Below the pieces are notes generated by a model. The model had not been told where the DNA came from. It was given only the letters and a program-made list of their open reading frames with translations, and ran no database searches. The translations under genes and the position numbers were made by a program. Shown piece after piece: positions 1,715 through 60,317 of a stretch of 64,000 nucleotides of DNA. Source of the stretch: Phoronis australis (taxonomy: Eukaryota; Animalia; Phoronida); NCBI GenBank assembly GCA_002633005.1, contig NMRA01000017.1:330260-394259 (forward strand), in the 5' to 3' direction. Numbering within the stretch: the stretch's first letter is position 1; each line of letters begins with the position of its first letter.

Positions 1715-1775
1715 ATGTTACCACGCTCATCCAATCTTGAATTGTTGTTGAATGAACCGGCATGTCAAGTCACAG
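1715..1775 (+). CDS. Candidate alternative first coding exon (MLPRSSNLELLLNEPACQVT, phase 1)
   Basis: CAAA-ATG start context; 20 codons + 1 nt; donor CAG|GTAATG; reverse CCAAT (ATTGG) at 1665-1669. Confidence 0.5.
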
Positions 1776-3364
1776 GTAATGTGTACATGCACGATTTTCG
1801 AAATCATAATTTTAGAATTCTCCAACTCTAGCAGACTTTGTAGTGTTTTATTGAGTCATTGAAGGTTTCAATCACGGTGTTTTTGCTGGTTGCGGCAATC
1901 AAATTTTATCGAGGAAATGTAATATTGCCAGATAATTTCATACGTTTATATATATCGTTTGTTATTTATCATTGACAAAATGCAAATTTAACTCATACTT
2001 GTTTATAATTTATGATCAATATATTTAATTCATTCATAGGTTTCTCTACAATGGTGATATGAGCTCGCTTTGTTCAGGTTGTAAGTTACAACTGATTTGC
2101 TGATAAGGTCTTAAGCACTATGTGGAAGACATTCTGAATATAAATATATTTACTACACACGGTGAATTCCATAAAAGTTAATTGAAATATCCGCTATCCC
2201 TTCAAAAATGTATCATATTCATTATGCCACATTTTAAATGTCAATTGTCATATAGTGTTTGATTTTACTTTATTTCTGTTTCTGTTGACAAAGGACGTTA
2301 TTATATCCGAAAATTTCAGTTGATCCATTCTTGTTGTTTTATTTACCTAATTATACTCAATATATATAAAATGCCACTGTGTTATTTTTTCGATGACTTA
2401 GACGGCATGGCAGACCTGAGTCCAGAATTTTGGCGGGTATTTTTTCATCATTCATTTTGCATTAATTTTGACATCCGTTGTTGCTATTGGGGATAAATTT
2501 AATGCCTCTGTAAATTTAGTAAGTGACCGGTCCCACTGACATTAAGCCGCTCAGTGGAGGAGTAAAAGTTCAGTGGGAAAGCAATTTGAGAATTATTCAT
2601 GACGCAATGAATACCTGAGTGATTAGTCTGAGCTACATGCGATTTTGTTCATGTGATAATCACAGAGAGGTTAGTTAACCCCCTTTTTTAATCAGATTTT
2701 GCTCTTATGAGCATCTGTGGTTACGTTCTTTTAGGCAAAATTTTGCATTTTGCATTTTGGGTGTCAAATCCAATGCTATGATCACTTCATGGATTTTAAA
2801 ATTAATTTGAAATAAAAATAACAAAATTGCTTGTATTACTTAAAATGTATTTTGATGTGTCAAAAAAAAAGAGCCGGACCGGAGCTCTTATGTCTTACTG
2901 CAGCTGTGTCCCATTTACCATGTGGAGGAATAAATTCATGTCGTGAAGTTTGTAAAAATGAATTGTGGGATAGACACCTTTACATTAACTTTATTTCAAA
3001 TGTTGTTTGTATTCTCAGAAAGGTGTGGCTTTGAAAGGTATGGGCTTGACTAAATCATTGTTTCTTCGCCTGCTTTATTGGATATGCCATATCACTTGTC
3101 GTTTACTTTTTTAATAGCGTTTTGGTGTAAAGCTATTTAGGACAGGCCATGTGATCAACAGATGGCATGGTGAAATAAAACATTTAGCAATCATTGGAAT
3201 GCTTGCCACAGGACATGTTCATGTGTATTATTGAACATTTAAATTAAAAATGAAGAAATTATGGGAGCGTTTCAGATTGTTTGTCTGTAGGCAAATACAG
3301 TTGGAAAGTTAAAGCACTGGGTGGGTATAATTACATTTGGTTTAAAATCACTTTGAAGACCAAG

Positions 3365-3389
3365 ATGGAAGATGAATATTTTTATTATG
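3365..3389 (+). CDS. Weak candidate alternative first exon (MEDEYFYY, phase 1)
   Basis: CAAG-ATG-G; 8 codons + 1 nt; donor ATG|GTATGA; short enough to be chance. Confidence 0.25.
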
Positions 3390-5992: not shown

Positions 5993-6020
5993 ATGCAGGC
6001 TATTAACAGTCGAAGGGCAG
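5993..6020 (+). CDS. Candidate alternative first coding exon (MQAINSRRA, phase 1)
   Basis: CAAG-ATG; 9 codons + 1 nt; strong donor CAG|GTAAGC. Confidence 0.55.
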
Positions 6021-10334: not shown

Positions 10335-10476
10335 ATGTTTTCGGGAGCAGGAAATGTTAGCAGTGCCAGTGGCGGTGGTAGCGGTTCGAAAAAATCGGAG
10401 AAATCAAACCGGGCCAAGGCCAACTTGAGCGTGGGTCAAAAATTGGCGGCGTTATTCAAGAAAGGTGGAGAAACAA
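10335..10476 (+). CDS. Candidate alternative first coding exon (MFSGAGNVSSASGGGSGSKKSEKSNRAKANLSVGQKLAALFKKGGET, phase 1)
   Basis: 47 open codons + 1 nt; GC/purine-rich coding-like island in AT-rich DNA; donor CAA|GTAGGT; resembles the exon at 26453. Confidence 0.75.
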
Positions 10477-13800: not shown

Positions 13801-14567
13801 GGCAAAGCAATATGTATTCTATTCCAGCCTCCATCAGCCAAGCCTTCAGAAGATCAATGATATTAACTTGTATTGACAACTGGAATTCCTTGCCATTCAA
13901 AATAAAAGCACTTCAATCCTCACTCTCAAAAATAACTTTAAAATGTATACCACTACTCCAGACTTGCCAGTCCCATTGACATCATTTCAACTTCCCCGCA
14001 GCCATGAAATAACCCTATACAGATCAAGATGTGGTCTATTCCTAAACAATGAGAAATTTAGACATAATTTTAATAATATTTCGCCTCTGTGTTCCTGTGG
14101 ACATACTCAGACATATCCTCATGTTTTCTTTGCTTGTGAGGTATGCAAGGAGGAGAGGGTACAGCTCTTCCAGGCATTCGAACAATACCCCAATGTTTAT
14201 AAAAAATATTCTGAAATTCCGCAATTGTACAACAAAATTAATTTCTTTCTGTATGGATGTCAAGAACTTAACTCAAACGAAAATAAGGTTTTATTTGAAA
14301 TAGTATCAGAATTTCGTTATAACATTAAATCTCTTTGTGTGAGTGGATAGAATTTTATACATCTGTATGAAAATGAATTATTTTCATTCGTTGTCATATA
14401 TCATTGTATTCTTAACATCAGTTTTTATTTATGTATTCGCATATAATCATTGTATATAGACTTCTTTGTATTTTTTTACCCAGATCTAATGCCTCTTGGC
14501 GCTTTCTGGGTTATGTATATTCATTGTATTCTGAAGATTTCGTAATAAACATTAAAAAAGAAAAAAA
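13801..14567 (+). mobile_element. 5'-truncated LINE (CR1/L2-like 3' end) with poly(A) tail and 11-bp TSD
   Basis: WNSLP motif then C-terminal Cys/His motif PLCSCGHTQTYPHVFFAC; AATAAA and A-rich tail; TSD AGAAGTGGCCC at 13790-13800 and 14568-14578. Confidence 0.88.
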
Positions 14568-14899
14568 AGAAGTGGCCCTTTGTCAAGATCAATGCAAATT
14601 AACTTTTTAGTCTTTTTGTAATATTTACAATGTACCAACTTAAAACTCAGCTCTCCATATTGCAGACTTTAGCTCTGTGCAAATGCCAGAGAAAAACAAT
14701 TTGAGTGTAATAACGACCTCCATTGTTTAGAAAGTAGTGCTAGTGATTACCTTTCCACTTCATTAGCTCAGATCTACATCAATACAAAGGGCGTGATGAA
14801 TAGATGTGGTAAAAGTTGTCTGGGGCTTAGGGACTCGGAGCAGTAACCAGTGTAAGCCAGAAATTCTCCACATGAATAAAGTTAATGAACTGCACATAA

Positions 14900-15375
14900 C
14901 AGGGCTTGGAATTTTCCGCGGAAACACGGATTTCCGCTTTTTTCAAATGTTCTGTCCACGTAGTTCATTATATTTCCGCGTAAAAAAATGGGATTTGATT
15001 TAAAATTTCCGCGGCAAATTTCTTTCTTGCCGCGACGTTGCTGACGACTTTCACTTCGAAAAGCGGAAGTTGCTCTTTATGTTTCGGAGGAACGTAAATT
15101 GTTATCATTGCCTGGGATAGCGTGGTTTTCTTCAATAGCGTCTCGTGAGATTGTAAATCGTGGTGAGAAATACTACGACTCTGCAGCCAAAAATGTGTGG
15201 AGGTGGGAGTGGACGGACGAGCTAAAATGACACAGACGCATGCTTCTGGAGGTGGTACCTTTTTTTAAGGTCCGCATCAACAAAAATTCAAGGCCCCCAT
15301 TTTCAAGGCTGGGTGCGTGCATGTTTTGGGCTGTAAAAATTTCCGATTTTTTGTCATGGAACATTCCAAGCCCTG
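14900..15375. mobile_element. Non-autonomous TIR element (MITE, hAT-like termini)
   Basis: TIR CAGGGCTTGGAAT / ATTCCAAGCCCTG; flanking direct repeat ACATAA; related copy at 63773. Confidence 0.85.
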
Positions 15376-16292
15376 ACATAAGCAGGAAATCTGTAAGCAT
15401 TTCGTTCCTAATATGACATGTATTTTTGCGATAAAAATTAAATGTTGGTCTTCCAAGGATGACATTGTCACTATCCCTAGATTTCTAGCAGGTAGATATG
15501 GTCTAATTAGCTGAATTTTTGTACTAGACACAAACAAAAATCTAATTGTCTGTGACCTCAAACCAGTGGATTTCTCTGCCCCTGTTAATGTTCATTGTTC
15601 CACAAAGAATGGCTCTTTCATTCTCTCAGAGGTCTTTATGGTCCATGATCACTATTCATCAAATACTGGATCTACATGACTCATATCCAAGTATATACAT
15701 AATGGCACTAAATTACTTTGTGAAGAATTATTGTGGTAAATCTCAAGTTCTTTCTATCAAAAGTTGTCAATGGAGATGACTTCTCTACATTTTTTGCTTT
15801 TGAAAAGTCATTTCTTGCTGTTAATTTTTTAGAATATTCGTCTTGTTAAGACACACTGCAGAATGCTTTTAACTAAAGAATATCTCGTCGTTATTTTAAA
15901 AACCATTGTTCTGTTCTTGAACTTGAATTTCGGGAGTGATGAGTGGGCGAATTGCGCCATTCCAACATTTGATGTTACCCAGGATCACAAAATGCTTGGT
16001 TTTGCTGTTTTGTATGGCATGTAACCATGTCTATCAAGGTTAGATTAGCCCTGTTCATAGTTCTACTAAGATATTAGTAGGATTTAAGATACACCCTTGC
16101 CATTGTGTTGCAGTCGACTGACTTTATAAAGTTAAGTTACTTTGTCTAATATAATGAAAAGAAAAATATTATTGGAAACTAAAATTTGCTTTGAGATTTT
16201 TACCTAGACACTTGTCTTTTTTAAGGAAGTGTCAGTAATGTTGAGGTCTGTTGTGCGTTTGTTTTGACCAGTTATACATTTATATATTTATA

Positions 16293-18699
16293 CCGTAATC
16301 GTTCGGGTTAACGCCCTGGGCGGTTAAATTGGCAAATCCAAAAAATGGGGGGAGGGCGGTTAACCGAGCAGTGGGCGGTTAAATCAAAAATCCACCTAAA
16401 GTAGGGGATGGGCGGTTAACCGAACATGGGCGCTTATTATGACAGACAACAGCCCTGGGCGGTTAATCTTACCTGGCGATCTAAATTCCGACACGACAAT
16501 CATACTCGGAACGCGTAGCCCTTTTCAAAGAGCTTTATCGTCACGTCGCCAAATGACTGTGAAAACGTCATAACAGCGGATGATCCCAACAAAAGTTCTC
16601 TTGTCCTCAGATTAGTCATTCACTATTAAATTAACAAAATTGCTGAGTAATAGCCCCGTGCCGTCCTGCGGTGCGCAGACTCCACTAGAATTAAAACTGT
16701 TTCAAGATGTGACCCTGCTTAAGTGCGCGCGTACAAGCTTCACGTGTTGCAGAGGTAAGACATCAAATTTATGGTTACAGTCTCGTACTATATAGCTGTC
16801 AAGTTCTGAGTCAGAGAGCAGTTTTAAAATTGGTTGTAATAAAAGTTTGAAAAACTTAACTCTGCTGTTTTTTGTGTTTGGGATGTTATAGTCGACACTC
16901 CGTGACTCAATGACATTTTCAGCGTATGGTTCTGCAGCTAGCTGTCTTATCTCGACAGCCCGGCATTGCTCTCTTGCCGTTGCGCCAAACATGCTATGCA
17001 AAGAAGTAAGACAAGGATCGGGGGTGGTCGAGCCAGTCGTCGATCAAGAATAAAATTTCAAGCAACTGCATAAATATGTTACAAAATGTCAGAAAACAGC
17101 AATGTTTCAATTCATTTTTCTAAACGATCACCTTACCAAACTTCGTGGTGGAAAAACATTTATTTTTCATGCAAGATGTCCAGATTATCCTATTTATATC
17201 ACTTGTAATATCGCACTGCGGCACTGTTCGGTCGCGCTGTTATCGCGCAATGTCTCAGTCGGCTGACAATTGTGTCTTGAAAATGCCGTCAAGTAATATA
17301 ACGGCCTCTTTCAATATGCATCTCGGTTTTTTTATGGCCAAAGATAGTGGCGGTATTCAGCACGCACGTAGGGCCTACGTGTGAGTCACCTGTCAATCAC
17401 ATGTTGGTGTCAAGGTAACATGCACTCCAAAGTGTGGGAACTCGCGCACGTGCACCACTACAAATCAGTCACACATAGCGACAGTCCGACGAAGTAACAA
17501 AAACGGGCGTGACTATGTACTTTTAAGCTGTTGTTACGAAAGACCCAGTTCTTTACGATATTCCTCTGTTGCCAATGTTCCCCAAAACTGCGATGTCAAG
17601 TCTATTCCCATATTTCCCGGCTCGATGCTCCCTAAGCCCATCCCTGTAAATAGCTGCGTGAATCTCCTACCCACTATCGTCAAGCAGTCTACGTCGTAGA
17701 TATTTCAGACTCGAATGGTAAGAATTTTTGTTTAGGCTGAAAATGGCCAATGTATAAACAAAATTATTCTGGATGGCTAAAAAGGGGATGTGGAAACGAT
17801 AATTCACACAGTCACGCGTACGTGGGGGCTGACGCAAGAAATAGTAAACAACAGCCAGCGACATTAATTAAATCTGCTAACCAGTTTGACAGAGATGCAA
17901 TAAGCAAAAAACAAAATTTGACTAGCCGTTTTTTATTACTTCAAGATCATACACAAACATACATTATTGCCAATGTTTGAATTCAGAAATCGACAGGCAG
18001 CAACGAAATCAGTAACCCAGTAAGGCACTTGTACTGTCCCTTCGGTCGCCCCACATCCTTTATAACCCGGCAGTTATATTCATCAAAATATTGAGAATTT
18101 GACATGTTTCCGTGAGTTGTGAGATTTGTTCAAAATACGAGAGCTTCCCACCTTAATAGAATTTGGAAGGTTGGCAAAACCATTGTCACATTTCTCTGGC
18201 CTGATTTTTTGGAATATATGTTTTATCTAGTGCACTGCAGACGGAAACTCAGCGCGGCAGACAAAGTCGCTGAAAACGGAGGTTTTGACGCCGGCGGCGT
18301 TCTTAAACTTTGCAAACAAGGGAAGAAAATAAAGTGACAAAAAGGTTCAAGTATTATATTTTGAATTGAGTTCATGACCCAAGACAGTAACTCGTTACCT
18401 GTATTGTAATTCAGATTGCTAAACCACCGTCTTGGGGTCCCGGCGTCGTTGCACTCATTGTGATCATCGATCTTTTTCTAAAAGTCGGGGAATCGCGCGT
18501 TTCCTTAGCACAAGGCGCTAAATCTTCATTCTTTAAAAGTCGGGGATGGGCGCTTAACCGAGAGGAGGGCGCTTAACTGGAAATCTTCAAAAATCGCAGG
18601 GAGGCGCTTAACCGAGCAATGGGCGGTTAAATCGAAAATCCACTTAAAGTCGGGGATGGGCGGTTAACTGAACACGGGCGTTAACCCGAACGATTACGG
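16293..18699. mobile_element. 2.4-kb non-autonomous DNA transposon (Tc1/mariner superfamily, Tc2/pogo-like ends)
   Basis: 24-bp perfect TIR CCGTAATCGTTCGGGTTAACGCCC; TA on both sides; subterminal GGGCGGTTAA/GGGCGCTTAA repeats; CpG-rich; no recognisable transposase. Confidence 0.88.
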
Positions 18700-19737
18700 T
18701 ATAATGCTGTCTCTAATTCTGACTATTTCTAACTCAGAGTGGCAATGCGTTCATAAAAAGAACTGCGGTCTGTGAAAAAATGTTTATCAGTAAAACATAA
18801 TTACAATGCATGAGAAAAGAATCTTGGCTCATGAGAAAAGCTTGTGTGATAAAAAGGATGAGAGGAAAGGATACTAGCTACCTCTGGTGCTATTTGTTCA
18901 TTTCGATGCAAGCAATGTGTTACTGCAACTGCAGCTCTCTCTGAGGTTTCTTTCAAGCATGCAACAAATAAGGCCAAGCAAAATGTAGTCTTGTTGCATA
19001 AACACACAGCTACCCAATTAGACCAAGAAAACACATAATGCTTACATGATCCTTCTTTGTACTCGCAATATTGTATTTGATGTCTGCTGGTTACTTTAAT
19101 TGTTCCAGGCTCACTGATCAATAGCCTTCCAGTGATTGGCTATTGACCTTTTGTGCCTGGAGTTCCTTTTGTGATCAAGATGTTTTGTTTAATTATCTAG
19201 ATTATGTTCTGCTTTTAATGTTAATCAATGATTTATGTCCAAATTGTTTTGGCATTTTCTGTATTCAACTTGATGTCTTCCAGACGCATTTGCCCTCTGG
19301 TAGATAGAAATGAAACTAGTTGTGCTCAAAATAAGGACTCATGAAGGCTGTTGCTAGAAATTTGAAATAAGGTGTAAGCTCGTTTTTACAAAATGTGGCA
19401 TAGAAGTTTGAATACAAGTATTCAAGTTGCTAACATGTTTGGTTAGTAATTTTTTTCCAAAATGAAGAATTTTGATGGCAATTGGTTAATAATATACATA
19501 ATTATGTACAATTAACATATTAGTTCTAATATGTACAAATAATAATACAATACTTCACATCTGAATTAACGTTTCACATTCTCATGACATGAAATAATAA
19601 TATTTAAGCACATTAACCTATCTGTTCATGAATCAGTCAATATGACACGTTTTAGTGTAAATAATTTCTTTAAAATTTGTTGTACTTGTTACGTGTGTTG
19701 TCTTGTATGCTCAAGATGTTGACTGTAAACATGATGT

Positions 19738-20520: not shown

Positions 20521-20870
20521 AACTGTGTGCACCTCTTGGTACCACAACTGTACGCACTTCTTGGTGCCACAACTGTGCGTACCTCTTTGTGCCACAACTG
20601 TGCGTACCTCTTGGTGCCACAATTGTGCGCACCTCTTGGTGCCACAGCTGTGCGCACCTCTTGGTGCCACAACTGTGCCTACCTCTTGGTGCCACAACTG
20701 TGCGCACCTCTTGGTACCACAACTGTGCCCACCTCTTGGTACCAGAACTGTACGCACCTCTTGGTGCCACAACTGTACACACCTCTTGGTGCCACAACTG
20801 TGCCCACCTCTTGGTGCCACAGCTGTGCGCACCTCTTGGTGCCACAACTGTGCGCAACTCTTGGTACCAC
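20521..20870. repeat. Minisatellite, 25-bp unit x14 (AACTGTGCGCACCTCTTGGTGCCAC)
   Basis: Direct tandem copies with no spacers; explains the six overlapping repetitive ORFs here. Confidence 0.97.
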
Positions 20871-23426: not shown

Positions 23427-23454
23427 ATGGCACATAATTTATTGATGAGACATG
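23427..23454 (+). CDS. Candidate alternative first coding exon (MAHNLLMRH, phase 1)
   Basis: GCT-ATG-G; 9 codons + 1 nt; strong donor ATG|GTGAGT. Confidence 0.45.
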
Positions 23455-26452: not shown

Positions 26453-26582
26453 ATGTTTGCCGCCACAAATGCCAATGTTTCCTGTGGCGACAATCACAAA
26501 GGATCCAGTCGTAAGATTTCACGCCTTGGAACAGTAATCACATCCAAGTTTACAGGACTGAAGCAGGGAAAGAAAGTAGCTG
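26453..26582 (+). CDS. Candidate alternative first coding exon (MFAATNANVSCGDNHKGSSRKISRLGTVITSKFTGLKQGKKVA, phase 1)
   Basis: 43 open codons + 1 nt; donor CTG|GTAGGT; MF...NVS start, basic tail and GTAGGT donor as in the 10335 exon. Confidence 0.72.
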
Positions 26583-35458: not shown

Positions 35459-35464
35459 CGTGTT

Positions 35465-35478
35465 GCGCCCTCTAGTGG
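35465..35478 (-). promoter_or_regulatory. CTCF-like motif CCACTAGAGGGCGC
   Basis: Exact match to the bilaterian CTCF core consensus CCASYAGRKGGCRS. Confidence 0.5.
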
Positions 35479-41199: not shown

Positions 41200-41299
41200 A
41201 TGACTTTACCTTTCTCCCTCGTGTCCAGTATGTTGACTCGACGCTTGCGCAAAAACAGTCAAAGGGGGCGCCAGCAGCAGAATCATGTTCATCTGTCGT
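41200..41299 (+). CDS. Candidate alternative first coding exon (MTLPFSLVSSMLTRRLRKNSQRGRQQQNHVHLS, phase 1)
   Basis: ACC-ATG plus in-frame ATG at 41230; 33 codons + 1 nt; donor CGT|GTGAGT; GC-rich island. Confidence 0.65.
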
Positions 41300-42261: not shown

Positions 42262-42476
42262 TGTGGTGTATATCACACGTGGCACCTGGACCATGGTGTG
42301 GTGTACATCACGCCTGGTACATGGAACATGGTGTGGTGTACATCACACTCACCTGGCACGTGGTCCATGGTGTAGTGTACATCACGCCTGGTACGTGGAC
42401 GGTGTGGTGTACATCACGCCTGGCACATTGACCATGGTGTGGTGTACATCACACCTTGCACATGGACCATGGTGTG
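42262..42476. repeat. Minisatellite, about 35-bp unit (GGACCATGGTGTGGTGTACATCACGCCTGGCACGT)
   Basis: About 6 copies. Confidence 0.93.
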
Positions 42477-45169: not shown

Positions 45170-45212
45170 ATGCCGTTTTACTTAATACGGTTTTACAACC
45201 TTTTTAACAAAG
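45170..45212 (+). CDS. Candidate alternative first coding exon (MPFYLIRFYNLFNK, phase 1)
   Basis: GAA-ATG; 14 codons + 1 nt; donor AAG|GTAACA. Confidence 0.4.
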
Positions 45213-47466
45213 GTAACATTTTTATGTGGAAAAGTTAAAAAATCGTAACTGACTAATTAAGGCCCACTTCAGTCTTAATGGTACTACTAACGGACTTAAC
45301 GACATTACTAATTACCGTCAATTCTACATTAGACCAAGAATTAACCATTGCAATCAATAAAGTGAATGAAATTAAATGAAGCAATGGAGTTGGAATAAAT
45401 TCTTTGTCATGTGCAGCCATTGTTATTAGTCCCAGATAAATGCGTTTTGTTCTTGCTGTATTCTAGTTGATTGCTGCACAAGCCTGTATGCAGTAGGCTG
45501 GAACTAGTCATTTATTCATCACCATACTCTTTGTGAATTATGAAACACTATTTTGTGCTCTACTCTGCATATTGATTTTCCTGTATGCCCGCATACTGGC
45601 GGAGAACCTGCTCAATTAGACACTATCACTGCTTGACGATTCTAACGGAACTTCATTTAATTACCAATAGCAGTAATTTGTGCGAAATCTAATTGTGTTG
45701 CTCTCCTTGCTTTTAAAACTGATTTCTTTTTTCTTGTCTGAGTGAACTGTCGTGACATTCTTTTCCTAACCCTGACACAGACTATTAGTCATTCATTCTG
45801 ATTAGTTGCTGATACAAAATGGTGATGTGGTTAATCTGAGGAGAGATAAATAAAGTATGAGTACAGTTTGTGTACCTTGTCTTGACACAACACCTAACCA
45901 TTGCAGCTAACCAGCTGTTGTGTTTATGCACAATGCTGTCTGCTTTGGTTGTTCAGGAACACCAGCGACATCTGCCTGCGTTAAGTGAACCTAGCATTGC
46001 ATAGAAACTACTGTTCATGGGCAAATCTCCTGACATTGGCGCTGAAATTAACAGGAAGACAATGAACTGGATTCAGGTGCCTGCATCCCCTGTAGTGCTT
46101 GCCCGGTATCACCCCGTCTGACCCCCTCCCCCAGTAATAATCAGTGCGTTTGAACAGTGTCTGACCCCCTCTTCGAGTAACAATCAGTTTGTTTGAACAG
46201 TGTCTGACCCCCATCCCCCAGTAATAATCAGTGCGTTTCTACTGTTGCTGGCTTATTGATCTACTCTCTAATCCCCACCATCTCTTTTAGCCTCTGACTG
46301 TTTATCTACAAAGTCAATCGACTTAAGTAAGGGAATGTGTCTCTTGCTAAATTGATGGTAATTCAGTCACTACTGAGAGAAGGTCGCATGGATTTAAGTG
46401 CAGAGTTTCAAGTCATCTACTCTATTTAGGTTTCTACTGAAATTAAACAGTTGTACGTAACTGTAACTAGCCTGCTTAAATTGGGNTAGTCATGGGTGGG
46501 TAGCATGAATATTAGGCAGTGTGCTGCTGAAACCCGGTTCATTTCTCAAAGGTGAATTTTGTACACTTTGGGAACTAAAATTCACATGAGAGAGGTATTC
46601 ATCAATCACGGTTGCTCTCAGATTTCGATGGCGTCAATTGGGGTTGAGCATTAAACCTACTTTCTGTCAGAAAACCAAACTTCTGATTGAAGTCATTTAC
46701 CATTATGAGATATGTCTATAATTGTTCCTTTAAGTCAAAATAGATGTGATTTCTCGGCTTGCAAAGAACTGACAGATTGTTTATTTTATTTGGCAGCATG
46801 ATTTCAAACAGTAATGAACTGTCTTTGCAAATCACTGAGCACGATGAGAATTGATTTTTGGTCCAATTGCAATGAACTAACAGTTGGTTATTTCTTGAGA
46901 CCATGTTTCGGTAAATAAAATGACGCTCGTGAGAAGTCACCTTTAGAGATACTAGTCTAGAACAAGTGCAATCACACGTACTTTGATTGAGGAACAATAT
47001 GAGACTACTTTGATAGGGGTACGTGATCAAAATCAAGACATGTTTTGTGACTGAAAGTGTCTATAGTTCTTTAAAGTGTCTTTAATAGTTCCAGTGAGAC
47101 AAGCTTTATGAAGGTACCTGTAGATGTACTTAATGCAACTGCCATGCATTATTCAACAGTCATATGACAGAATACTCCAATCTTACTAATAATAGTTGTT
47201 CCAGTATTTTCTTTGTCCTATGCATATATTTTCCAGCCACTGCTACATTTCCTCTGTGTTGAGTTAAATCTCAATCCCCATGTTGGTTGCTTAGGCAATT
47301 GTTGCATAATTAATTTCCATCAGGGACAGAAAAACAAGTTACAAGCATTCAATAAATTTCTGTGAATCACTTTGTATTAAAGCTTAACCAAGGTCACTGT
47401 CATTCGAGGCCATGATGATTTTGTGGGGAAAACTTTTTCCCTCATAAATACATTCATTCGTTAGGA

Positions 47467-47503
47467 ATGAAACCGCCCGCATACAAGGCGAACAGCAACT
47501 CGT
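47467..47503 (+). CDS. Candidate alternative first coding exon (MKPPAYKANSNS, phase 1)
   Basis: 12 codons + 1 nt; junction TCGT|GTGAGT identical to the 41200 exon; local CpG enrichment; X-box-like GTTGCTTAGGCAAT at 47286-47299. Confidence 0.6.
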
Positions 47504-48894
47504 GTGAGTGACAGGTGGTGGGGCGGGGCCATGTTTTTTTGCTTGGAAAGTTGAGTTCTGTTTAGCTTAATATTTGTTTTGTGTGCTGAACAAATCTGAC
47601 GTACGTGTTGCACAAATAGCAGCCGTACTGAAAGCGGTCGTGTAGTTTTTATAAATTTGAAATTTTTATAAACAAAATGCTTTATTATGAGGAAGTCTCA
47701 TTAGGAACCACTGTCACGGTTCAGTAACTGCAGAAACATGCAGATTCAGATTTCATATTAGATGTACACAGAGTCCCTGATTTTCTGCTTTCAAAAAACA
47801 GAGAAATCATTTTTAGCAAATCATAAAATTCTGTCTGGTGAATTAACAAATTCGGTTTTGCTATTCCAAACTAAGAGATCAATTATGTATATGCCTAATT
47901 ATTTCCATGGCATGTTTGCTACAGTTATGTTTTACTGATGTATTTTAAAAAAAGTTATGCATGCTCTGTTAATTGTTCGTAAAACCTGAAAAAGAGCAAC
48001 GCCAAAATGAAACAAAAACTACTAAAGTGTTTACTGCAAAATAATCATTGATCCAGAATTTGCCATCAGGTCAGAATACAAATTTATTATGCGAGAGTCT
48101 TGGGTAACAAATTTAGTGGTTTATATTCTTAATTTTGATTACTATATAAATTGAAAATAACAGAATCCTGATATCTGCTGCTGAAATATCTGAATTGTGT
48201 TTGTTCAGGACAGGAATCATTTTAGAAGAACAGGGGTAAGGGTGAATTAAGCCATACAGCTTCAAGTTTATAGGCCAGTTTGGAGGACCTAAGGGTCATT
48301 ACAATTTTACTTCCAATTTTAATGGAACTGTCGGATGGAAAGAGGAAGTAATTGTTGTGCCCAAGACACGGGTCATGTTCCTAAAGTGATGCCTGTCAGG
48401 GTCTCTAAACATGGCTGTTTCACTGATGATCACAGGGTGGATCCTCCCAATGCTGTATAATCACTGACAGCTCTCGGGAGCCCTGTAAACTCAGTATGCT
48501 AACACGTAAACTCAGCTAACCGGCTAACCGATTGACAAACATGGTGCCTTGACTGAAAAACATGGTGCCGAACTCTCAAAACACAACTTAGGCACACAAA
48601 ATCTCCCGACTCACAAACACAGCTCACTGATTATTTAACATGGTACCCAGGCCTGGAGTCTGTAAAACATCTTTGTGGGTGATTGTAATGTGTTTTTGGG
48701 CCCGTAAGCTGTGTTTTGTGAGTTGGGCGCTGCAGTTGTTAACAATGTGTCAGAGCCATATTTTCAAATTCATTTACATTAAAACTTTTCATAAATTTAC
48801 ACTTTAGAAAAAGCTTTAGTCACATTAAGTTATGCTTTTTAGTCTCCAAAGTAACAGGACATGAGACTGCATTTAAACATTTTTTCCAGAAATT

Positions 48895-49564
48895 GACTAG
48901 GTGTCTGTATAATAGTGACTGACTCCCAAGTGGTACATTAGGGTAAAAATGACTAGGGCTCTATGTCTTTGTGATTGATTCCCAAGTGGTACATTAGGAT
49001 AAAAATGACTAGGTATCTATATCTTAGTGACTGGCTCTCAAGCGGTACATTAGGGTAAAAATCTAAGTATCTATATATTAGTGACTGACTCCTAAGAGGT
49101 ACACTAGGGTAAAAATATCTAGGTATCTATATCTTAGTGACTGACTCTCAAGTGGTACATTAGGATAAAATGACTAGGTATCTATATCTTAGTGACTGGT
49201 TCTGAAGTGGTACATTAGGGTAAAATGACTAGGTATCTATATCTTAGTGAACGATTCCCAAGTGGTACATTGGGATAAAAATGACTAGGTATCTATATCT
49301 TAGTGACTGACTCCCAAGTGGTACATTAAGGTAAAAATGATTAGATATCTATATATCTTATTGACTGATTCCCAAGTGGTACATTAGGGTAAAAATGGCT
49401 AGGTATCTCTTCTGTAGTGACTGACTCCCAAGTGGTACATTGGGGTAAAAATGACTTGGTATCTATATCTTAGTGACTGACTCCCAAGTGTTACGTTATG
49501 GTAAAAATGACTTGGTATCTATTCCGTAGTGACTGACTCCCAAGTGTTACATTAGGGTAAAAAT
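48895..49564. repeat. Minisatellite, about 56-bp unit x12
   Basis: GACTGACTCCCAAGTGGTACATTAGGGTAAAAATGACTAGGTATCTATATCTTAGT repeated head to tail. Confidence 0.97.
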
Positions 49565-50673
49565 GTCATCAACTTAGGGCAGACACTACTGACAGACTTG
49601 TGAACATTCATTGTTATTAGCGATAAGTAATACCAAATTAATGCTTCACCAACTACTAGTCGTTTGTTAAAGAACATGGACTCAGTTTCAGCAATGTTTG
49701 AACCACTTGAAAATGTGAAAAAATACATTCCTGGTAATTTCTTTGGAATTGGTTTGATTTACTGTGTTACTTCCTTCCAAAGAGTTACTTGTAGATTTTC
49801 CCTATCTTGCAAACACAGAAGTCAGTTAAAGGCTGGGTTCTAAAGCAGCTTATTGCTAATGAAGTCTACCTTCAAATCCCCATATTGAGGAATTAAGCTC
49901 AAAATGATCAACCTGTATTTATCCATAGTTCTGAGTGGCAGTGCCATGCATGAGTGGTTAAACTGATGGAGTGGCTGAGTAGCCTGCAATTGTTGATTTG
50001 ACTCCATGTAGGCTTTAAGTGCAGCTGTAATCAAATAGAAGTGTTTGTCAATCATCAGTATTCAGGTGAGATGTATTGATGCTCTCTTTCACTTGTGGCT
50101 GTGACCCTCTCTGGACTGGCTGTTAATTCATTGCTGGCATAGCAGCAGGGGTGTATTGGAATCTGTGAGTGGACCCTCTAATTACTGAAAGGAAGTAATA
50201 GGCTCAACGTTAAGGATTATTCTGTGTTGTTGTTGTTAACGGTTTTTTAGGAGCCGACAGACAATACAACTTACGCTCGCTTGCATTGTAATAATAAGGA
50301 TACGGCTTAGTACTGTTTGCCTGTTGGTATTCGCAGAGAAAACTGGCTTCGAATTAGCATACAGAGGCATTGTGGATGTGTGGGTCTGGATATTTGCTCG
50401 AATATTTTGTTTGGATATTGTTAATACAGCTGAGTGCCTGCAGACACGTTACCTGCCAGTCCTCCAGTCTGGCTGCAATACAGTGGTGAAAAGATATTAA
50501 CAGTGGATCTCTCATTGGTACAGCTGCATCTTGGTGATATGTCATTAACTACATCAATGTTGATTTGAAGCTGATGCAGCTATAGCAGACTGTAATTAGA
50601 TGACATTAGTCCTGTCAAGTGATTGATTCAAACAATTGATTCGGCCTCATTTGGAGTAATTTGACTTACCGCG

Positions 50674-50755
50674 ATGGCCGATGGATCATTTGCTCAAAAC
50701 ATTTTGCAAGCTTTTGGCATTGAGAAGCTTCCCACATTTGGAAAACAAGATAAAC
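50674..50755 (+). CDS. Alternative first coding exon (MADGSFAQNILQAFGIEKLPTFGKQDK, phase 1)
   Basis: GCG-ATG-G; 27 codons + 1 nt; donor AAC|GTAAGC; paralogue at 54056 differs mostly at synonymous sites. Confidence 0.9.
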
Positions 50756-51634
50756 GTAAGCATATGATGATGTGTTTGAGAATATTTTTGTGCATAGTTC
50801 GTATTGTTAGATTTTCCATGTTTTATATTTATTCGTCTCTGTTATTCACCTTTTATGCGTATATTTTGTCTCGTGCATATTTACTGGAACTATTGGTTTC
50901 CACAACTTATTTTTGCTTAGAATTGTTCATCAAGGAGATGCCTAGCTAGTTACGTTAGATATGGTAGGGGTGTCTTCGTCCATTGGGGGTTTGAGAGAAT
51001 ACCCCTAGAATTTTTTTGGACGTTAATAGGTATTTTCCTGCATTTGGAGAAAGTCTTGTCATTTCACCCAATACACAGTGGGATTATTAAGGCTGATAAC
51101 AGGCTGGCCACATGGGTTAAAAAGTGGACGCAAAGTTGGCTGTGGAAATCAAAAGAAAAGCCAGTGCTTCGTTGAATCGGCCAGTAACGATGCTGACACA
51201 TACAGTCAGATATGCTTGATGCCATTGGATGCTTCTATGCATCATTTTAAACTGGATCTCAAAAGCTCAACCATCACTCAAGTGTTAATGCATTTAATCT
51301 TTTAACTCGATTTTACTCCCTGTTTTGCATATCTCGATTTTACTCCCTGTTTTGCATATCACGCTGAAATTGAGATATACATTAGTCACAGCTTCGCACA
51401 TAAAGCCATGAGCCTTCTGCCCATAAATATGGTAACGTTGATTGGCTATTATTTGCTCGATTATTTCTAAATATTATTCTATTTTTCTTTAAATTTGTTT
51501 TATCCTATGAAGGACCTTAGATGAATAAAAAGCACATTAACTTGATGTGCGATATTAACGGCCACAGAAGTTTTTATCTTTTGCTGACCGACAATACTTT
51601 CCTTGTTTTTAACATGGTTGGACATACAATCTAA

Positions 51635-51798
51635 AATCCCTGTCTACACGCCGCACTGGGATTTCTTGTGTGCTGCTTGGTATACGACTTTTTACCTGGA
51701 AAAGTCCAGTTGGAGCACCTCTCTACACACTTCGAGTCATGTATGACACATGTACTGAATACGATGAACAAAAAGTGGGAACTCGTGTACACAGGACT
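51635..51798. mobile_element. Small TIR element (PIF/Harbinger-like ends)
   Basis: AATCCCTGTCTACACG / CGTGTACACAGGACTT, flanked by TAA. Confidence 0.5.
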
Positions 51799-53894
51799 TA
51801 AAACGCATAAGAAATTTTGATGTGATAATACATAGAAATATTTCTAAATGTTCTTGATTGGTGCTGTAATCGTTGTTCAATTTTGCATAAAAATGATTCC
51901 CAAAAGTGTGACTTTTTTCATTTATTTTATTTAAGTTCTCAGAATTTCACCAAACTTTTTTAGGTGTTCACTGCAAACCTGGCTAATGATGAAGCCATTA
52001 GTTTTCATTAATCATTTTAAGTTCTATTCTCTCCCATATTTTGTGCTCAACTAAAAAGATAATTCACACCAGGTATGCTGAGTAAAATTTACCTTTTCCG
52101 TCTGTTTGATATTAAAATGCATAGCTTCGTTACCTTAAATATGTTAATCTTTTGGCGCTCTCAATAATTAAGTGGTGTGTGTGTGTGTGTGTGTTGGTAG
52201 TACTCTGTTTCGTGCATGTATTATTCATATGTAGGAGATTGCTTTTATCACATATAGTTAAATCTTCTTTTAAGTCTCTGTGGTGGTAAATAAGAACTTC
52301 TCAACTCACAAATTGGTTGTGAACTCCATTTCCTTATCAAGAACACATTATCTAATTCACTCGATCACATTAAGATTGCCAGGGACAGTTTGTATCAGCT
52401 ACTTCATTTTTGCAATCACAACTAAAATTCATTTTGCAAGGTACAAATTTGGCATTGTTACCAAATTATGATGTTAGGAAAACGTGTAAAGTGTGGCTGT
52501 AGTAAATGTCAAGTGCTTTACTGATGGCTTTATTTGATGTTGTAGTAGAAGCATTCTGACTGAGTGGCCAGTCTCCTATGGCCACACTTCACCATGTGGT
52601 TGTAGTCAGGCCAGGTGCTTCTAAGAGCTCAGTTAAAAGGTGTTCACTTAACAGCTCTAATTAGAACCGATCATTTGATCTTGAGATGTAAGACTGTCCT
52701 GACCTTTTTGCCTTTCTAGATCTTTCTCATCCTGAAGGTTTAAAAGGTTTTTGGTTTTGTAAAGGCTCTGTAATGCGCGGGTCTCGAGGTGTGGATTTAG
52801 TAACATGAAACTTATGAAGACATCTTTTATGGCAAATTGAGAGAATGTTGAAACTTTTATAAGCACATTACAAAATAATGAAAGAAAACGGTATTATGAA
52901 GTGTTGTGTGGTCTCAATGTCACGCTCACAAAGGATTTCTTTTTGTAGTTTATACTTTATATTTATTAATAAAATACAATTATTCTGAACACTTGCCTTG
53001 CATTAAAAGAGGTCGATTTCTATGCTACAAGCAGTAGTAGTGGTATTTATTTGCTGGGATGCATTCTATTCATGAATCAATTTCCAAAGTCTAACTGTTT
53101 ATAAGTCCATAAGACCCGATTTTCCTTATAAAATAAACCCTTTCAAAATGCACCTCAATTTCTGACTAATTTCCTTTTTGCAAAAACCCAAATCCTATTA
53201 CATAATTTCTTTTAGTTTCATCTTAAGAGTTGTCAAGACTTACTAATGGGTTTTCCACCCACTGTGGATAATTGACAAAAGAATGGAAATTGCAATGCAA
53301 CATGTTAATTAAACCTTAAGCACTGGTGCTGTTAATGATTTTGTGTAGTTCTGATAACTGCTAAATAAATGTAGATGTTTGTCAAATGTTTTCTGGTGAT
53401 TGACATGCCTATGTAATTAAAAGTTTTGATTATTTCTTTGACCGTTATGCACACAATGGACTGACAGGTGGAAATTTAGGTCATCTCAGCAAATGTGAAC
53501 TGAGAAACTTTATTCCGTTTTAGCATGGCGTGTGTAGTGCTGCCATTAGCAAACAATACTTGGTAATCACCATTTCCTGCAATTTTGGCAATTACATCTG
53601 AGGGAATTGTAGTTTTTTTTAAAACATTGTTTGATAAAATTAATAAGGTTTCTTTACATATTATTCTAATTATTGATCGTGATTCACTATATTATTTTGA
53701 ACTGTGGCAAAGCTTGACCTAATTAAACACTCAGTCCCAGTCCCTGTTATGAAGGTGCTAATGCACAACTCCAATCAGTCTTCCCAAGGGGACCCTTGTT
53801 ATGGCGGTAATTTGCAAATGCCAACAGCTATCGTTACTTAAGTTTTAATTAACTAGAACAAGGCATGTCGGTTCCTGCTAGCATTTATAGGCGT

Positions 53895-54016
53895 ACTGAC
53901 CATAGAAGGCTTGATTACTTGTACCAGCGCAACAATACAGTTGGGGTGTTCTTTATCACTTCTGCTAGCCGCACTGACCATAGAAGCCTTGATTACTTGT
54001 ACCAGCACAACAATAC
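53895..54016. repeat. Local tandem duplication (78-bp period) just upstream of the 54056 ATG
   Basis: ACTGACCATAGAAG.CTTGATTACTTGTACCAGC.CAACAATAC at 53895 and 53973. Confidence 0.9.
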
Positions 54017-54055
54017 CATAGAAGTGTTGTGCACCTTTGCTGCTTCACTGTAGCC

Positions 54056-54131
54056 ATGGCTGATGGTGCTTTTGCACAAAACGTTTTACAGGCCTTTGGA
54101 ATTGATAAACTACCAACCAAAGAAGATCGCA
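54056..54131 (+). CDS. Alternative first coding exon (MADGAFAQNVLQAFGIDKLPTKEDR, phase 1)
   Basis: GCC-ATG-G; 25 codons + 1 nt; donor GCA|GTAAGC; 18/21 residues identical to the 50674 exon. Confidence 0.9.
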
Positions 54132-54364
54132 GTAAGCTCTTTGTACTTTTTGCTTTTTATTTGAGATAGCCCTTCAGTTCTTCTTGGTTTACAGCTGTGG
54201 GGAATTGTCGGTGGAGTTTTGTAGTCTGATAGGTGGTGGTTTAGTCTGTGAGACACTGATCTAACTGGGATTGCCACTTGCAGTTCTCACTTTTCATACT
54301 AGAGGAGCCAGATGGGATTTGTAGATCTAGGTCTACTGATGACAAAGAAGCAATGGAAATAATT

Positions 54365-54730
54365 TGGAGAGAGTCAGGGGTGGGAGACAAGTAGAGAGGG
54401 AAGGTGTTAGAAGGTTGGTGAGAGAAAGAGAGAGAGGGGGAGGGAGAGAGGGAGAGGGAGAGCGAAATTGAGGAGGAGGGAGAGAGAAAGGAGAGATAAG
54501 GAATNGGAAATGGGGGAGACAGAATGTGAAGGAAGGCTGAATATGGGGTGTGGCAGAAGGTGACGGAAGGAGTCGGAGATAAAGGATGTCTGAGGGGAAT
54601 TGGGAAGAACATATAGGAAGGTGTTGGAAGCCAATTGGATTAAACTGGAAGGACAGCAGGGGAGAGGGAAGGGAGCGGTGTGGTGTACAAAAGGTGGATT
54701 AGGAGAGTGCAAGGCAGAAAGAATGAAGGA
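54365..54730. repeat. Purine-rich (GA) low-complexity tract
   Basis: Strong G/A strand bias with GAG/GGA runs; contains an N. Confidence 0.85.
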
Positions 54731-55577
54731 TTTAAGTTCAGTGTTCTGCTAAGTGAATTTGCATTGGCCAACATCACCTCATAATGGAAATCATACTTTA
54801 TGTTAAACTTGAAGCCAATCAGAAGACAAAAAATTGGTAGTATTAGACGTCCAGTGATACTTCTGTCTTCTGATTGGCTGAAACGCAGTATGACAGCTTG
54901 CGTTAACCAACCGAGAGCGAAATGTCACTTTTCATTCACGCCCTCTCCAATATCAGGTGTTACTGTTCACAATCTGACCAATCAGACACTGTAGAATTCA
55001 TAAACTCTAATCATGAAGCGAGCAGACATCAACGCATCAAAGTAGATTAGAGCAAGCTGATCATCTAACATGAGACAAAAAATCAGAGGAAAGAAGCATC
55101 AGTGGTCATGTGATCAAACAATTGACCGATCTTTTGGATGTCTCAGACTCTCAGGTCATGTGGGCCTTGCCGGAGAGCAATATTGTTGAGTGCAATATTG
55201 GTCTCCTTTGGTGCATATGACCTGATATTACACTCGGGATCAGTCCATATTTGGATATAGGATTGCTCAGATAAAATGTTATATTTCACGCTACAATGGG
55301 CTGAAGTTAATATTGTATTGATCTTCCTGTTTAGCTGAGGTAAGATAGTATATTTCTCCTCCTTTAAGCTGGAGTAATATTTGTGTCGTTCCCATGTGAA
55401 AGTTCTCTAAAAAATCCCAGTATATATTCAGCAGGAGAGATGTTTGCATATTTATGTTTGCAAACAAAGGTCACCTCTGAGGCATAAATCTCTACACTAA
55501 TCCTACAAATGCAAAAATTGTCCCAGTAAATATTTTCATCTTAGTTGAACAGCAAAATTAGCAATAAAAGGAAAGAT

Positions 55578-55734
55578 AAATAACACATTATAAATAACGC
55601 ACACTGTAAATAACGCACACTGTAAATAACGCACATTGTAAACAACGCACATTGTAAATAACGTGCATTATAAATAACACACATTGTAAATAAAAGACAT
55701 TTTAAATAACAAAATTTTAAATAACACACATTGT
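55578..55734. repeat. Minisatellite, 16-bp unit (AATAACGCACATTGTA)
   Basis: About 10 copies. Confidence 0.93.
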
Positions 55735-56562
55735 ACCTGCTATTTCCTGTAGGATGTGTCCCAACTTATAATATGTCTAGCCTTAAAGCAACGCAATAGG
55801 GGACTTACTTGACTTGTGTTCGCCATAGTACAGTCAAAGCCCCAAGTCAGTGCTCTGATACACCTGGTGTAATGTGGAATTTGAATATTTCAATGGGGGG
55901 AGGGCATTCAAGACATCCTGTACTTTGTGACTTTTTTATTTGTTTAATTTGGTATGTAACTGGTGTTATCAGCCTTACGTATGTCAATAGGAGATACAAA
56001 GCTTGCATTCTCATTACATGGGGACAACGTATTATTAGAAATAATTCCTGTAAAAATATTGCTGTGAAGTTTCTGAGATTCTGAAATACACGGGAACACT
56101 TTAAATATATTCCCCCTTGTATCTTGAGTGACAATGTATTTCATATGTGCAGCTGGAGTAACATCATATTTCACGATGTAGTTAGAATATTTTATTTCTG
56201 CCCTCCAGCTGCCAGTGACATTACGTTTCACTACAACGAAAGTTATTCTACATTATTGATCATCAGTGTTTCTTGTTCAAACACAACATTCAAGGGAATG
56301 AGTGCTTCCTATTTTTTAAACAAAAACAAATTCAAATTCTATGTATGATGTCTATTATTCATTCATGTTAGACAATATTACAACTCCACTTGCGTCAATG
56401 TAGCCTTATCAGCTTATATACTCTCTTCACAAGTTTTTAATTTTCAATAGACTCTGTGTTTGTCCACTAATCAATATTAAGGTATTTACCGGTACTGTAG
56501 AAACTATTTTCTCATTCAGATTTAAAGAAAGCACTGCATTAGTCCATTGATTTAATATCGTA

Positions 56563-57254
56563 CCGTACTTGTCCAAATTAACGTCCATGCTCATCTCACA
56601 CAAGTTCCAATGCTTGGCTTATCACCCCCCCCCCCAAATTTATACGGTCTAGACTTCTAAGTGCCTTCGTCTTAGTGAACGCACATCACAGCAGAATTTT
56701 GGCTCCAAAAGAGCCTACCTTTGGGTCACAGTCAGTTAGTCTCGGCAGAACCTTGCCTTTAAGTTGGTTGGAGAAAATGCTTATTACGTCCTGCTCTTTT
56801 CTAAAGGAGATATGAAATGGTTGTTTCGGCTTGCGAGCATTCTAATATACTTAATGAACTATGACATAAACCTCATTTATCGTACTTGGTGTGTCAAAAA
56901 CAGTGAAAGAAGCGCATGGTCAGCTTAATCAGTACGCACAATGCTCATTTTCGGAAAGTTAAGAATACACTGCGTAAAAGCCAGGGTACTACTAAAGTAC
57001 CATGCGGGACCACTCCATTATTCTAAAGGGCAGGCCCCTTTGTTTACAATCTCCTGGTGTTTTATTTGGTGCTCGAGCAGAAAGTATGATGTCAATGGTG
57101 CTTCCGATTGATCGTTTGGACAAGCGACCTCCCCCCCCCCCTCGACTTCTCAGAAATGTCTATTTTGACAGATTCATGCCTGACTTCTTGTCCATCTTCA
57201 GATTTTTGAGTGCCACGATTGAAGTGTCCTGGGTAATAATCCAGATGAGTACGG
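56563..57254. mobile_element. Non-autonomous TIR element (Tc2/pogo-like ends)
   Basis: TA-CCGTACTTGTCCAAATTAA ... TAATCCAGATGAGTACGG-TA. Confidence 0.7.
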
Positions 57255-57815
57255 TAAAAAGCTCCTTGAATTTACTGTTTGAAACTTGCCATCTAAGAGA
57301 TTTAATTGTATGAATATTGTATGATTGAGTGCTTTGGACTGCTAGGTCACTGACACGGATGCGTGGTTGATGTGTGTGAAGACATGATAATCCCCCGTTT
57401 GTCGTACTAAAAATTTATAACCTCATAAATAGTGGCTTGATTAATTTTCCATAAATGAATGATTGTAGTATACGTTCTCTGGTATCAGCAGGTGATCTGT
57501 TCTATAACTACTCTCTTCGCATTGGTACGAGCGGGTCTATCAGTCGCTTATAAGTGGCTTAATACCATGCATCAATAGTGTGACATTTGGCTTATGAGCT
57601 TTTGTCTTGAATTATGCGTTGCTCCTATGAAACCTTGTCAGAGAAAGTCTAACAAAGTGAGACACAGGCACAATAAAATTTTGAGCTGGATTTTTATGTT
57701 TTTGTCTACCTACATAGTGGTATAGTACTCAAACGGCAAGCAACACTAACTTCAGGAATCACGTTTAATGAAATCCCGAGTTATAGCATGTTTGTAATGT
57801 ACAAGAAGAGTTTTA

Positions 57816-58244
57816 AGCTGTATTTACTTGAGAGACAGGCGACCGACCCGGCACAGCTAACACGGAACAGCTGCTCCAGTGCAAGTGTGTGTGTAAACAC
57901 AACTGACACGGAGCGAGTGACTCAGCGGCGACCAGTTTTTAACACCGGTTTCATAGGTTGAGCGAGTTACACACGATCAGTTGCTCCAGCGTCAACTGCA
58001 TGTCTAAACACAACTGGGACAGGCTGGAAAGGGATCATCTTTCAATGCACTTGCGCAGTAGCTTGTGTTCGGGTGAACAACTGGCATTCCACGTGGTATG
58101 GACATTCGCTATTGTTTATACGAGCGTGCACAGACAATATTTTGTAAGTGATTCCTGCTGATCCATTGTAAATGCAACTAAAGTGGAGCAAGTCGTCCCG
58201 TGGCCACTGACACGGTGACAACTGCCTCTCGTGTAAAAGCGGCT
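57816..58244. mobile_element. PIF/Harbinger-like MITE
   Basis: Imperfect TIR AGCTGTATTTACTTGAGAGACAG / CTGCCTCTCGTGTAAAAGCGGCT with TTA flanks; internal GTAAACACAACTG and GACACGG repeats. Confidence 0.65.
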
Positions 58245-58331
58245 TTAGTATGCTGGTTATGCCAAGGAATAGTTATGGAACGACTGTGATGTTTGAGAAT
58301 GGTTTTAGAATTGTTATGATGTTAAACGATA

Positions 58332-58631
58332 CAGTAAAAACTCTTCAGTTTGGCACAGTCTCAAAAATTTGGGACTCCAGACTTGAAGCCAAAATTGAAT
58401 CTACAGATCTATAGATTGTTGTTTGGGAGATTTGTGCGTTCATCATATTTCTCAGGTATTGGACACTGCATTTTACACCACAAAAAGCAAAAATAGACAT
58501 CGCAAAATTGCTGTTTGTTTGTGATAGTAATTCTTGAGTTTGATATGGTCATTATGACCTGTTTCTAAAGTTCCATTACCTTGAGCAAAATAATTGATTT
58601 TTCACTGGCCCAATCTGAATATTATTTACCC
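58332..58631. mobile_element. MITE family A, copy 3
   Basis: TA-CAGTAAAAACTCTTCAGTTTGG left end; colinear with 22975-23318. Confidence 0.7.
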
Positions 58632-60301
58632 TAGCTTTAGAATATCTCTGGGTATTGAAGAATAGTTTTAGCTTTACTTTAGGGTTGAAGTAAGAAAACC
58701 GACACCAAATCATTGCGCGGCTGTGAATGATGCATGTATTCATTATGTCTATTTGACACCTGCTGTGAAAGCAAAATATGTGACCAGTCTAGAAGTACTG
58801 TTTTCTGTTTGGTTGTGGATAGTGGTGACACCTAGTAACTATGTCTGTGACTAAACTTTGATTTACCTATTTGTCTATAGATGTCTCTGTACTCCTTAGA
58901 AGACTAGATTACATGAGTATGCTTGAATAACTATCGAGATAATTGCTTTTGCCTGTGTAAGCAGGATCAGAAAAAAAAATGAAAGCTCTCAGTTTGGGTG
59001 AAGTGTATCGTTAAGATGCGCTGCTTTAATCAGAAATACCTTTTTGTGACTTTTTGAAATGATTGCCATATTGAGTGGTTTGTGCTTTCACGTGTTGTGA
59101 CTGATCAAATTGAAATGAGACAGTAATGTGCTTGCTGTCTTGCTACTTCTACCAATACTTGCTTTGTTGAACTTTTTCAGCATCATTGACTAATAAGATG
59201 ACTGACTACTGGAGCCTGTGTCTATTGATGCAGCACGTGTATTGATCGGAGGTCATAAATGTTGATTTAAGAAAAGCCTACTCACACATATCTAGTTATT
59301 TAGGTTTGTATGTTATGTTGACTAATGAGTTTTGTTAACAGTTGTAAACGCACCAATCAATGAGCTATCCCAGTTTCAACAGATCAATATAATCATATGG
59401 CCTTAAACCTGTGCTTTCTGACAAAAAAAATCTTTGATGCAGGGTCATTTGTTATCAGTCATAAATTTGGTCTTCTCTGGTTCCTTACTCAGTTTAAAAG
59501 TGATCTCTGTACTCGGGAGGTGTAGAGAGCTCTGACAGTCTGTTATTTCTTCAAACCAAGCTCATAAAATTTCATGTAATGTCATGACCTGAAATTTTGT
59601 GAGTTTCAAGTTGCCCTCAAGCAATAACAAACTCAGTATATGGGGGGGGGGAGCTATGTTGACTTTGGACCTCTCTTGCAAGAGTCAAACAATCAAATAA
59701 GACATCAGCAGATTTTAGACAATGTAGCGAGGGGCATGGCGTCTAGAATGGACTGATCACGCACAGTTGTTAGGTATTATGATATTGCTTTTCTTGATGT
59801 GTGTCTTTAAATTTCAATTTTGCGATAACATGACACACATAATAAGCTGGCCGTGCACTGCTCAGTGAAATGCATTCTCCATTTTCTGAGTATGATTATA
59901 TTAGAATGCGGAGGAGCCACAGGGACCATGTCTCCTTCATTACAAAGCCCTAGAGTACGTGTACAATATATATTCCCACCTGTTAAGGCAAAGTTGCACA
60001 GAAACTGATTGATGGTTAGGCCTACTCAGAGTTATGGTCTAGGAAGTGTGTTTTTGTGTTTTATATTTATTTTTTTCAATCAAAAAGAGTTTCACATAGG
60101 TTTATGTATTACCATTTTAATAGTGCTTTGAACACGAATCAGAAATTTCCAACTTTCACAATATTAGAAAATGAAGATGAAGATTCGCGACATAAAGGTA
60201 TACTTTCCTTGATATGTTCACCAACTTCACCGGTCTTATTTTATGCTTAATTTAAAAAAAAAAATTAAAAGTGAGAGGGTTTTCTGTAGCACCCTCATTA
60301 C

Positions 60302-60317
60302 ATGTGGCACCAGTTGA
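60302..60317 (+). CDS. Weak candidate first exon (MWHQL, phase 1)
   Basis: 5 codons + 1 nt; donor TGA|GTGAGT; very short. Confidence 0.25.

Follow-up and report, generated by a model that had tools for sequence, protein, structure and literature searches.

The 64,000-nt stretch of Phoronis australis DNA analysed here (hereinafter the window) has an animal-like base composition of 37.6% GC, with minisatellites and transposon remnants scattered through it, and carries on its + strand a series of short open segments that run from an ATG to a GT splice donor. A sequence-only reading had listed ten of these segments as alternative first exons of one gene, together with seven weaker ones starting at 255, 3365, 19738, 27371, 31597, 32480 and 60302. 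Every listed segment is indeed open from ATG to GT on the + strand and 3n+1 nt long (10/10), and all seven weaker ones are likewise open and of 3n+1 length. The list was nevertheless incomplete, as it left out an RNA-supported exon at 62320-62359, which is included with the ten in Table 1.

In 17/17 ATGs checked, the frame is closed by a stop 3-90 nt before the ATG, and no polypyrimidine-AG occurs within 150 nt upstream of the 21 ATGs checked for one (62320 is outside both sets). Because of these upstream stops and the lack of an upstream polypyrimidine-AG, the candidates are unlike internal coding exons. CpG density does not mark the candidate exons, and an amphipathic helix reaches p<0.05 in only one of 12 candidate tail peptides. 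The last four bases are identical in exons 41200 and 47467.

Table 1 Candidate first exons in the window.
Feature	Position	Strand	Properties
Possible first exon	1715..1775	+	20 aa; passes phase-blind filter; donor weak in intronic part
Possible first exon	5993..6020	+	9 aa; top donor score of the set; passes phase-blind filter
Likely first exon	10335..10476	+	47 aa, Gly/Ser/Lys-rich; passes phase-blind filter; T step 0.22
Uncertain candidate	23427..23454	+	9 aa; good donor, purine at -3; T step only 0.04
Likely first exon	26453..26582	+	43 aa, basic; passes phase-blind filter; T step 0.16
Likely first exon	41200..41299	+	33 aa; donor GTGAGT; passes phase-blind filter; 0 reads in 4/4 runs
Doubtful candidate	45170..45212	+	14 aa; weak donor; T step -0.08
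Possible first exon	47467..47503	+	12 aa; donor GTGAGT; passes phase-blind filter
Coding first exon, firm member	50674..50755	+	27 aa + 1 nt; donor GTAAGC; paralogue of 54056
Coding first exon, firm as coding	54056..54131	+	25 aa + 1 nt; donor GTAAGC; duplicate of 50674
Exon absent from earlier list	62320..62359	+	MGSNLDKLSREIM + 1 nt; phase 1; donor GTAAGT

The peptides of 50674 and 54056 are ~77% identical, and their 25 aligned codons comprise nine identical, 11 synonymous and five replaced codons, with an in-frame 6-nt indel. Third codon positions hold 14 of the 19 base differences, with pS at 0.80 and pN at 0.115 (Fisher p=5e-7). The similarity spans the ATG to the GTAAGC donor of the same phase, and the 600-nt flanks align no better than shuffled sequence. 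The codon comparison points firmly to two coding first exons under purifying selection that have been kept long after their duplication. The window thus holds at least two coding exons that carry their own ATG and share a donor phase, namely the selected pair; 62320 is also phase 1. Where the sequence-only reading had spoken of paralogous pairs in the plural, only 50674/54056 stands as real. The 10335/26453 comparison is not significant (E 1.2), and no other pair among the 136 peptide pairs compared is credible, the other best scores reflecting matches of only 5-6 residues.

RNA came from three raw-read runs (X5, X6 and X7) and one contig run with the same species label, and was mapped onto 49600-64000 and 30951-50950, with 18-19% of each raw run read. 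The mapped range covers five of the listed exons (41200, 45170, 47467, 50674 and 54056), the other five lying outside it in 1-30950, and sense-strand RNA is seen at one of the five covered (50674). Over 50081-50950, X7 contributes ~3,140 bases, with coverage from ~50100 to 50755, in one mate orientation only, which corresponds to + strand RNA under usual chemistry, the library strand convention being assumed. X7 is the only one of the three raw-read runs with one-strand RNA in this region; X6 has no reads there, and X5 shows only low depth in both orientations up to bin 50081-50561. Judged by depth, the 5' edge in X7 lies at ~50100-50200, giving 50674 a 5' UTR of ~500 nt with five upstream ATGs. 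Within 50562-50950, X7 holds ~476 bases, with three reads at 50578, four at 50721 and six at 50736. Reads at 50578 and at 50736 cannot coincide, so aligned lengths at 50736 are short; the six reads there average at most 71 aligned bases out of ~145-151 and are therefore clipped. From depth, we infer that this clipping and the rise toward the donor fit splicing at 50755.

The second transcribed region is bin 62106-62586, with depths of 2.17, 0.96 and 1.44 in X5, X6 and X7 on one mate orientation and 0, 0 and 0 on the other. The orientation is the same as in the 50674 region, all three raw-read runs contribute and reads span 62272. Exon 62320 has a purine at -3, a G at +4 and an upstream in-frame stop at -30, and its sequence is unique in the window; its Met-Gly start makes myristoylation a possible, predicted modification. 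With the strand convention again assumed, RNA at 50674 in one of three runs and in the 62320 bin in three of three indicates that use differs between samples.

Much of the RNA mapped to the window is from repeats, and one could take 50674 and 54056 for what is left of a short gene or repeat that was duplicated, with RNA that is non-coding or repeat-derived. Each transcribed region, however, has a sequence found once in the window and reads on one strand only, which sets both apart from the repeat bins, and the 14/19 concentration of differences at third codon positions also speaks against a relic, an explanation that we regard as highly improbable.

No reads fall in the bins of 31597 and 54056 in 4/4 runs, as at 41200. 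The 47467 bin holds only ~100 bases of opposite-orientation reads (X6), and the 45170 bin opposite-orientation reads only (X5). At 32480 and 60302 RNA is inseparable from the reads of neighbouring repeats, so that clear RNA is seen at none of the three weak members in range. A blank in the RNA does not remove an exon, because 54056, real by selection, is blank too. Around 45170, X6 also has ~500 bases of reads in sense orientation (43624-44957, upstream of the exon), and X5 has ~600 bases in the opposite orientation (44958-45624).

The sequence-only reading had cautioned that its members were selected by phase. For each phase we counted the unique ATGs whose frame stays open up to a donor, with 13 repeat arrays masked and 400 order-4 Markov simulations as reference. 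At moderate donor strength, chance yields ~15 phase-1 candidates per strand, and the caution was correct. The + strand shows a modest phase-1 excess (p<0.05 in 5/14 threshold settings, range 0.012-0.41), and the - strand reaches p<0.05 in 0/14. Two other features set the listed exons apart independently of phase, although the earlier selection may itself have drawn on such features. A purine occupies -3 in 10/10 listed ATGs against a background of 51%, and the T step across the donor averages +0.125 compared with -0.006 in 77 other + strand donors (p=5e-5). T content downstream of the donor is 0.40 against 0.33 in the same 77 donors (p=0.001).

A phase-blind filter, devised after the list was seen, combines a purine at -3, the donor score and a T step of at least 0.10. 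It keeps 1, 8 and 3 ATGs of phase 0, 1 and 2 on the + strand and 2, 2 and 4 (8 ATGs) on the - strand. Counted by donor (collapsed by hand to the longest frame), 8/10 on the + strand are phase 1 (p=0.003); over eight settings p ranges from 0.019 to 0.32. The filter keeps 1715, 5993, 10335, 26453, 41200, 47467, 50674 and 54056, and rejects 23427, 45170, all seven weak members and also the RNA-supported exon 62320. It serves as a guide only, because it was built post hoc, weakens at other settings and drops 62320. There are probably ~5-8 real exons among the candidates, and the weak members look like chance segments. The array of first exons is firm for part of its members, and the candidates had been partly overcounted.

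Between the candidate exons, internal-exon and Pfam scans find no coding body. A scan for strong acceptors paired with strong donors gives one candidate on the + strand and three on the - strand, in agreement with the earlier statement that the window holds no convincing shared internal coding exon. Of the 46 open reading frames of at least 90 aa, 33 were scanned against Pfam along with nine candidate-exon peptides (42 sequences), and none gave a match above cut-off; the other 13 comprise ten that fall within low-complexity or tandem repeats, the 50665 read-through and a pair of short - strand frames (6280 and 7431). Rfam and tRNA scans of the window gave 0 matches. Composition is skewed by strand, with G exceeding C in 27/32 and T exceeding A in 29/32 of the 2-kb bins, uniformly across the window. 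Such a skew is the expectation for long introns transcribed on the + strand, and the window has the look of intronic DNA belonging to a + strand unit.

An ordinary gene with three or four promoters near the right end (50674, 54056, 62320 and perhaps one more) would account for part of these data, the candidates left of 48 kb then being mostly chance segments in intronic or intergenic DNA. The chance expectation for donors of moderate strength, ~15 phase-1 candidates on each strand, is in keeping with this, as are the lack of + strand RNA at 41200, 45170 and 47467 and the lack of homologues found for the 10335 and 26453 peptides. Against it, six further listed exons pass the phase-blind filter, compared with two phase-1 passes on the - strand, the strand skew extends evenly from one end of the window to the other, and the real exon 54056 is blank in the RNA runs as well. 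We consider this smaller set of promoters unlikely, if still the most serious competitor to an extended array.

No listed joint runs from 50755 or 62359 to a site inside 30951-64000 (joint tables of five and four rows), and no highly covered one-strand exon precedes 64000 in the mapped range, so the acceptor probably lies beyond 64000, and with it, likely, the constant part. Among the loose ends listed, no read or contig joins any donor to an acceptor. By inference, a transcript started at 50674 would pass over both 54056 and 62320, as happens with alternative first exons of one gene. T-rich, acceptor-like AG sites occur at 50251 and ~62096, upstream of both transcribed exons, and non-coding leader exons may sometimes splice in there.

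These two sites, the common acceptor not seen in range and the fact that the peptides are unrelated apart from one pair would also suit exons that start at least two different genes, with bodies beyond the window or interleaved and some exons possibly serving as non-coding leaders to downstream first exons. Yet no coding body lies between the exons, no joint is listed from 50755 into the 62320 exon and none reaches 50251 from within 30951-50950. Interleaved same-strand genes are, moreover, uncommon. We hold a mixture of several genes to be improbable.

We therefore favour, with a probability of about 0.7, a reading in which the window makes up the variable 5' part of a single + strand gene, whose short alternative first exons splice to a shared exon 2. 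That part of the sequence-only reading is borne out by the selected pair, the two RNA-bearing exons and the lack of an acceptor in range, while its likeness to protocadherin and UGT1 was overstated. In the proposed mechanism, every exon would have a separate promoter, and a transcript begun at one short coding first exon would be joined by a phase-1 splice to a common exon 2 located past base 64000. The isoforms would thereby differ in their N-terminal tails, of 9-47 residues, and have one protein core in common, with first exons used according to tissue or condition. By analogy, the tails would most likely set location or binding, one of them having a Met-Gly start and several being basic.

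The first exons end in all four bases, and if those ending in T are used, exon 2 cannot begin with AA, AG or GA. An exon 2 starting with T would make all ten split codons V, I, M, L or F, including those at the C and A ends of the duplicated pair; a start with AT or AC (D, N, Y or H) is also possible. The last exon base is not G in six of the 11 exons (donors 10476, 41299, 47503, 50755, 54131 and 62359), where a generic donor model predicts ~20% (p=0.012), and the residue at the split codon may be the cause.

Clustered loci such as protocadherin alpha/gamma, UGT1 and GCNT2 line up their first exons in tandem ahead of a constant region (PMC1885805), a layout that the proposed array would share, together with one exon duplication of which both copies are retained. 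In contrast to the variable exons of those loci, which the same passages describe as large, similar in length, paralogous and encoding whole domains (PMC1885805), the exons here span 28-142 nt and only two are paralogous (one credible pair of 136). UGT1 exons are further described as having a common upstream motif. None was found here: the best 7-10-mers in the 600-800 nt upstream of the 11 ATGs do no better than 100 random sets.

PRKACA, PRKACB and C. elegans kin-1 offer a closer likeness. These genes have short, mostly unrelated alternative 5' coding exons that join a constant exon 2 in phase 1 (PMC5526564, PMC3625193, PMC9692727), and their N-termini, some long, some very short and some starting with Met-Gly, are tissue-restricted in use. 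The proposed array would share this arrangement. The cited part of one study places PKA-C intron 1 in phase 1 with the hydrophobic Val15 at the split, and notes that invertebrate PKA-C 5' exons are highly diverse, a diversity 'not investigated further' there (PMC5526564). Because of the hydrophobic residue at such a split and the diverse invertebrate 5' exons, a PKA catalytic subunit is our leading, still tentative, guess for the gene; the hydrophobic split codons in the window would match Val15, as given in that part of the source, if exon 2 begins with T. Differences are also evident. The window has no kinase exon, and the Met-Gly exon 62320 lacks the Asn2 and Lys7-Lys8 of PKA exon 1-1. No Met-Gly start in the window resembles exon 1-1 (Gly1, Asn2, Lys7-Lys8), a homologue of which could be located outside the window. 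The portion of PMC9692727 cited gives kin-1 six 5' exons, compared with up to 11 candidates here.

A calcium sensor of the NCS/KChIP type is a less probable guess, and another signalling gene a further one. The peptides of 50674 and 62320 may resemble KChIP/NCS N-termini. In KChIP and DPP6/DPP10 genes, several promoters place variable N-termini on one core with cell-type-restricted expression, and myristoylated forms are reported to be frequent in invertebrate KChIPs (PMC3973911, in the parts cited). Unlike KChIP genes, the window has no EF-hand exon, and unlike DPP6/DPP10 its firm members include no transmembrane-type first exon. By analogy, the locus likely works like PRKACB, kin-1 or KChIP and not like protocadherin or UGT1.

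Protein searches with the 10335, 50674 and 26453 peptides gave no relative, a weak negative as they reach longer proteins only and isoform tails can hide in 90% clusters. The ESM Atlas gave no usable match for two peptides, exact look-up of three sequences found none, and PDB sequence searches returned chance-level matches only. In viral contigs, 120 pattern matches gave 0 confirmed. The one metagenome pattern match was set aside as likely chance, lying in GC-rich, bacterial-looking DNA and stopping after nine residues. A literature search for the shared motif returned nothing. A literature search did not surface this locus, which is a weak negative.

Swapping short N-terminal tails through alternative promoters is well known, and no new mechanism is proposed here. 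The fullest version of the favoured reading would have all or nearly all of the 11 exons used by one PKA-C or calcium-sensor gene, with ~2x the kin-1 repertoire, a myristoylated form that has no relation to exon 1-1, and a duplication near synonymous saturation with both copies kept. We judge this combination doubtful, at about one chance in four; if true, a single locus would have acquired its N-terminal targeting tails through birth and duplication. The value of the locus lies in its annotation and in a test case for how targeting tails arise and persist, with up to 11 tails, a selected pair and sample-specific use.

Several repeat-like elements occur in the window. Minisatellites with periods of 25, 16, 20, 35 and 56 nt occupy 20521-20872, 29661-29860, 32502-32983, 42261-42476 and 48890-49576, respectively; in the 25-nt array, several frames happen to lack stops. 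A 2.4-kb CpG-rich element at 16288-18704, with perfect 29-nt inverted repeats at its ends, subterminal direct repeats and TA-like flanks, is likely a non-autonomous DNA transposon. The + strand frame at 13877-14347 encodes 157 aa with a Cys/His motif that may resemble the one at the end of ORF2 in non-LTR retrotransposons; it has no Pfam match. The CpG-rich region 36900-38360 attracts both-strand RNA reads and loose ends and looks like a decayed transposon rather than a promoter; a CpG-rich candidate at 37534, which lies in it, was set aside on account of these both-strand repeat reads. A 200-nt repeat is present twice, at 14899-15105 and 63772-63972, the copies being 79% alike. In the second copy, each run places hundreds of RNA reads on 63776-63817, directly preceded by a common AG, as if other copies of the repeat were often carried in transcripts.
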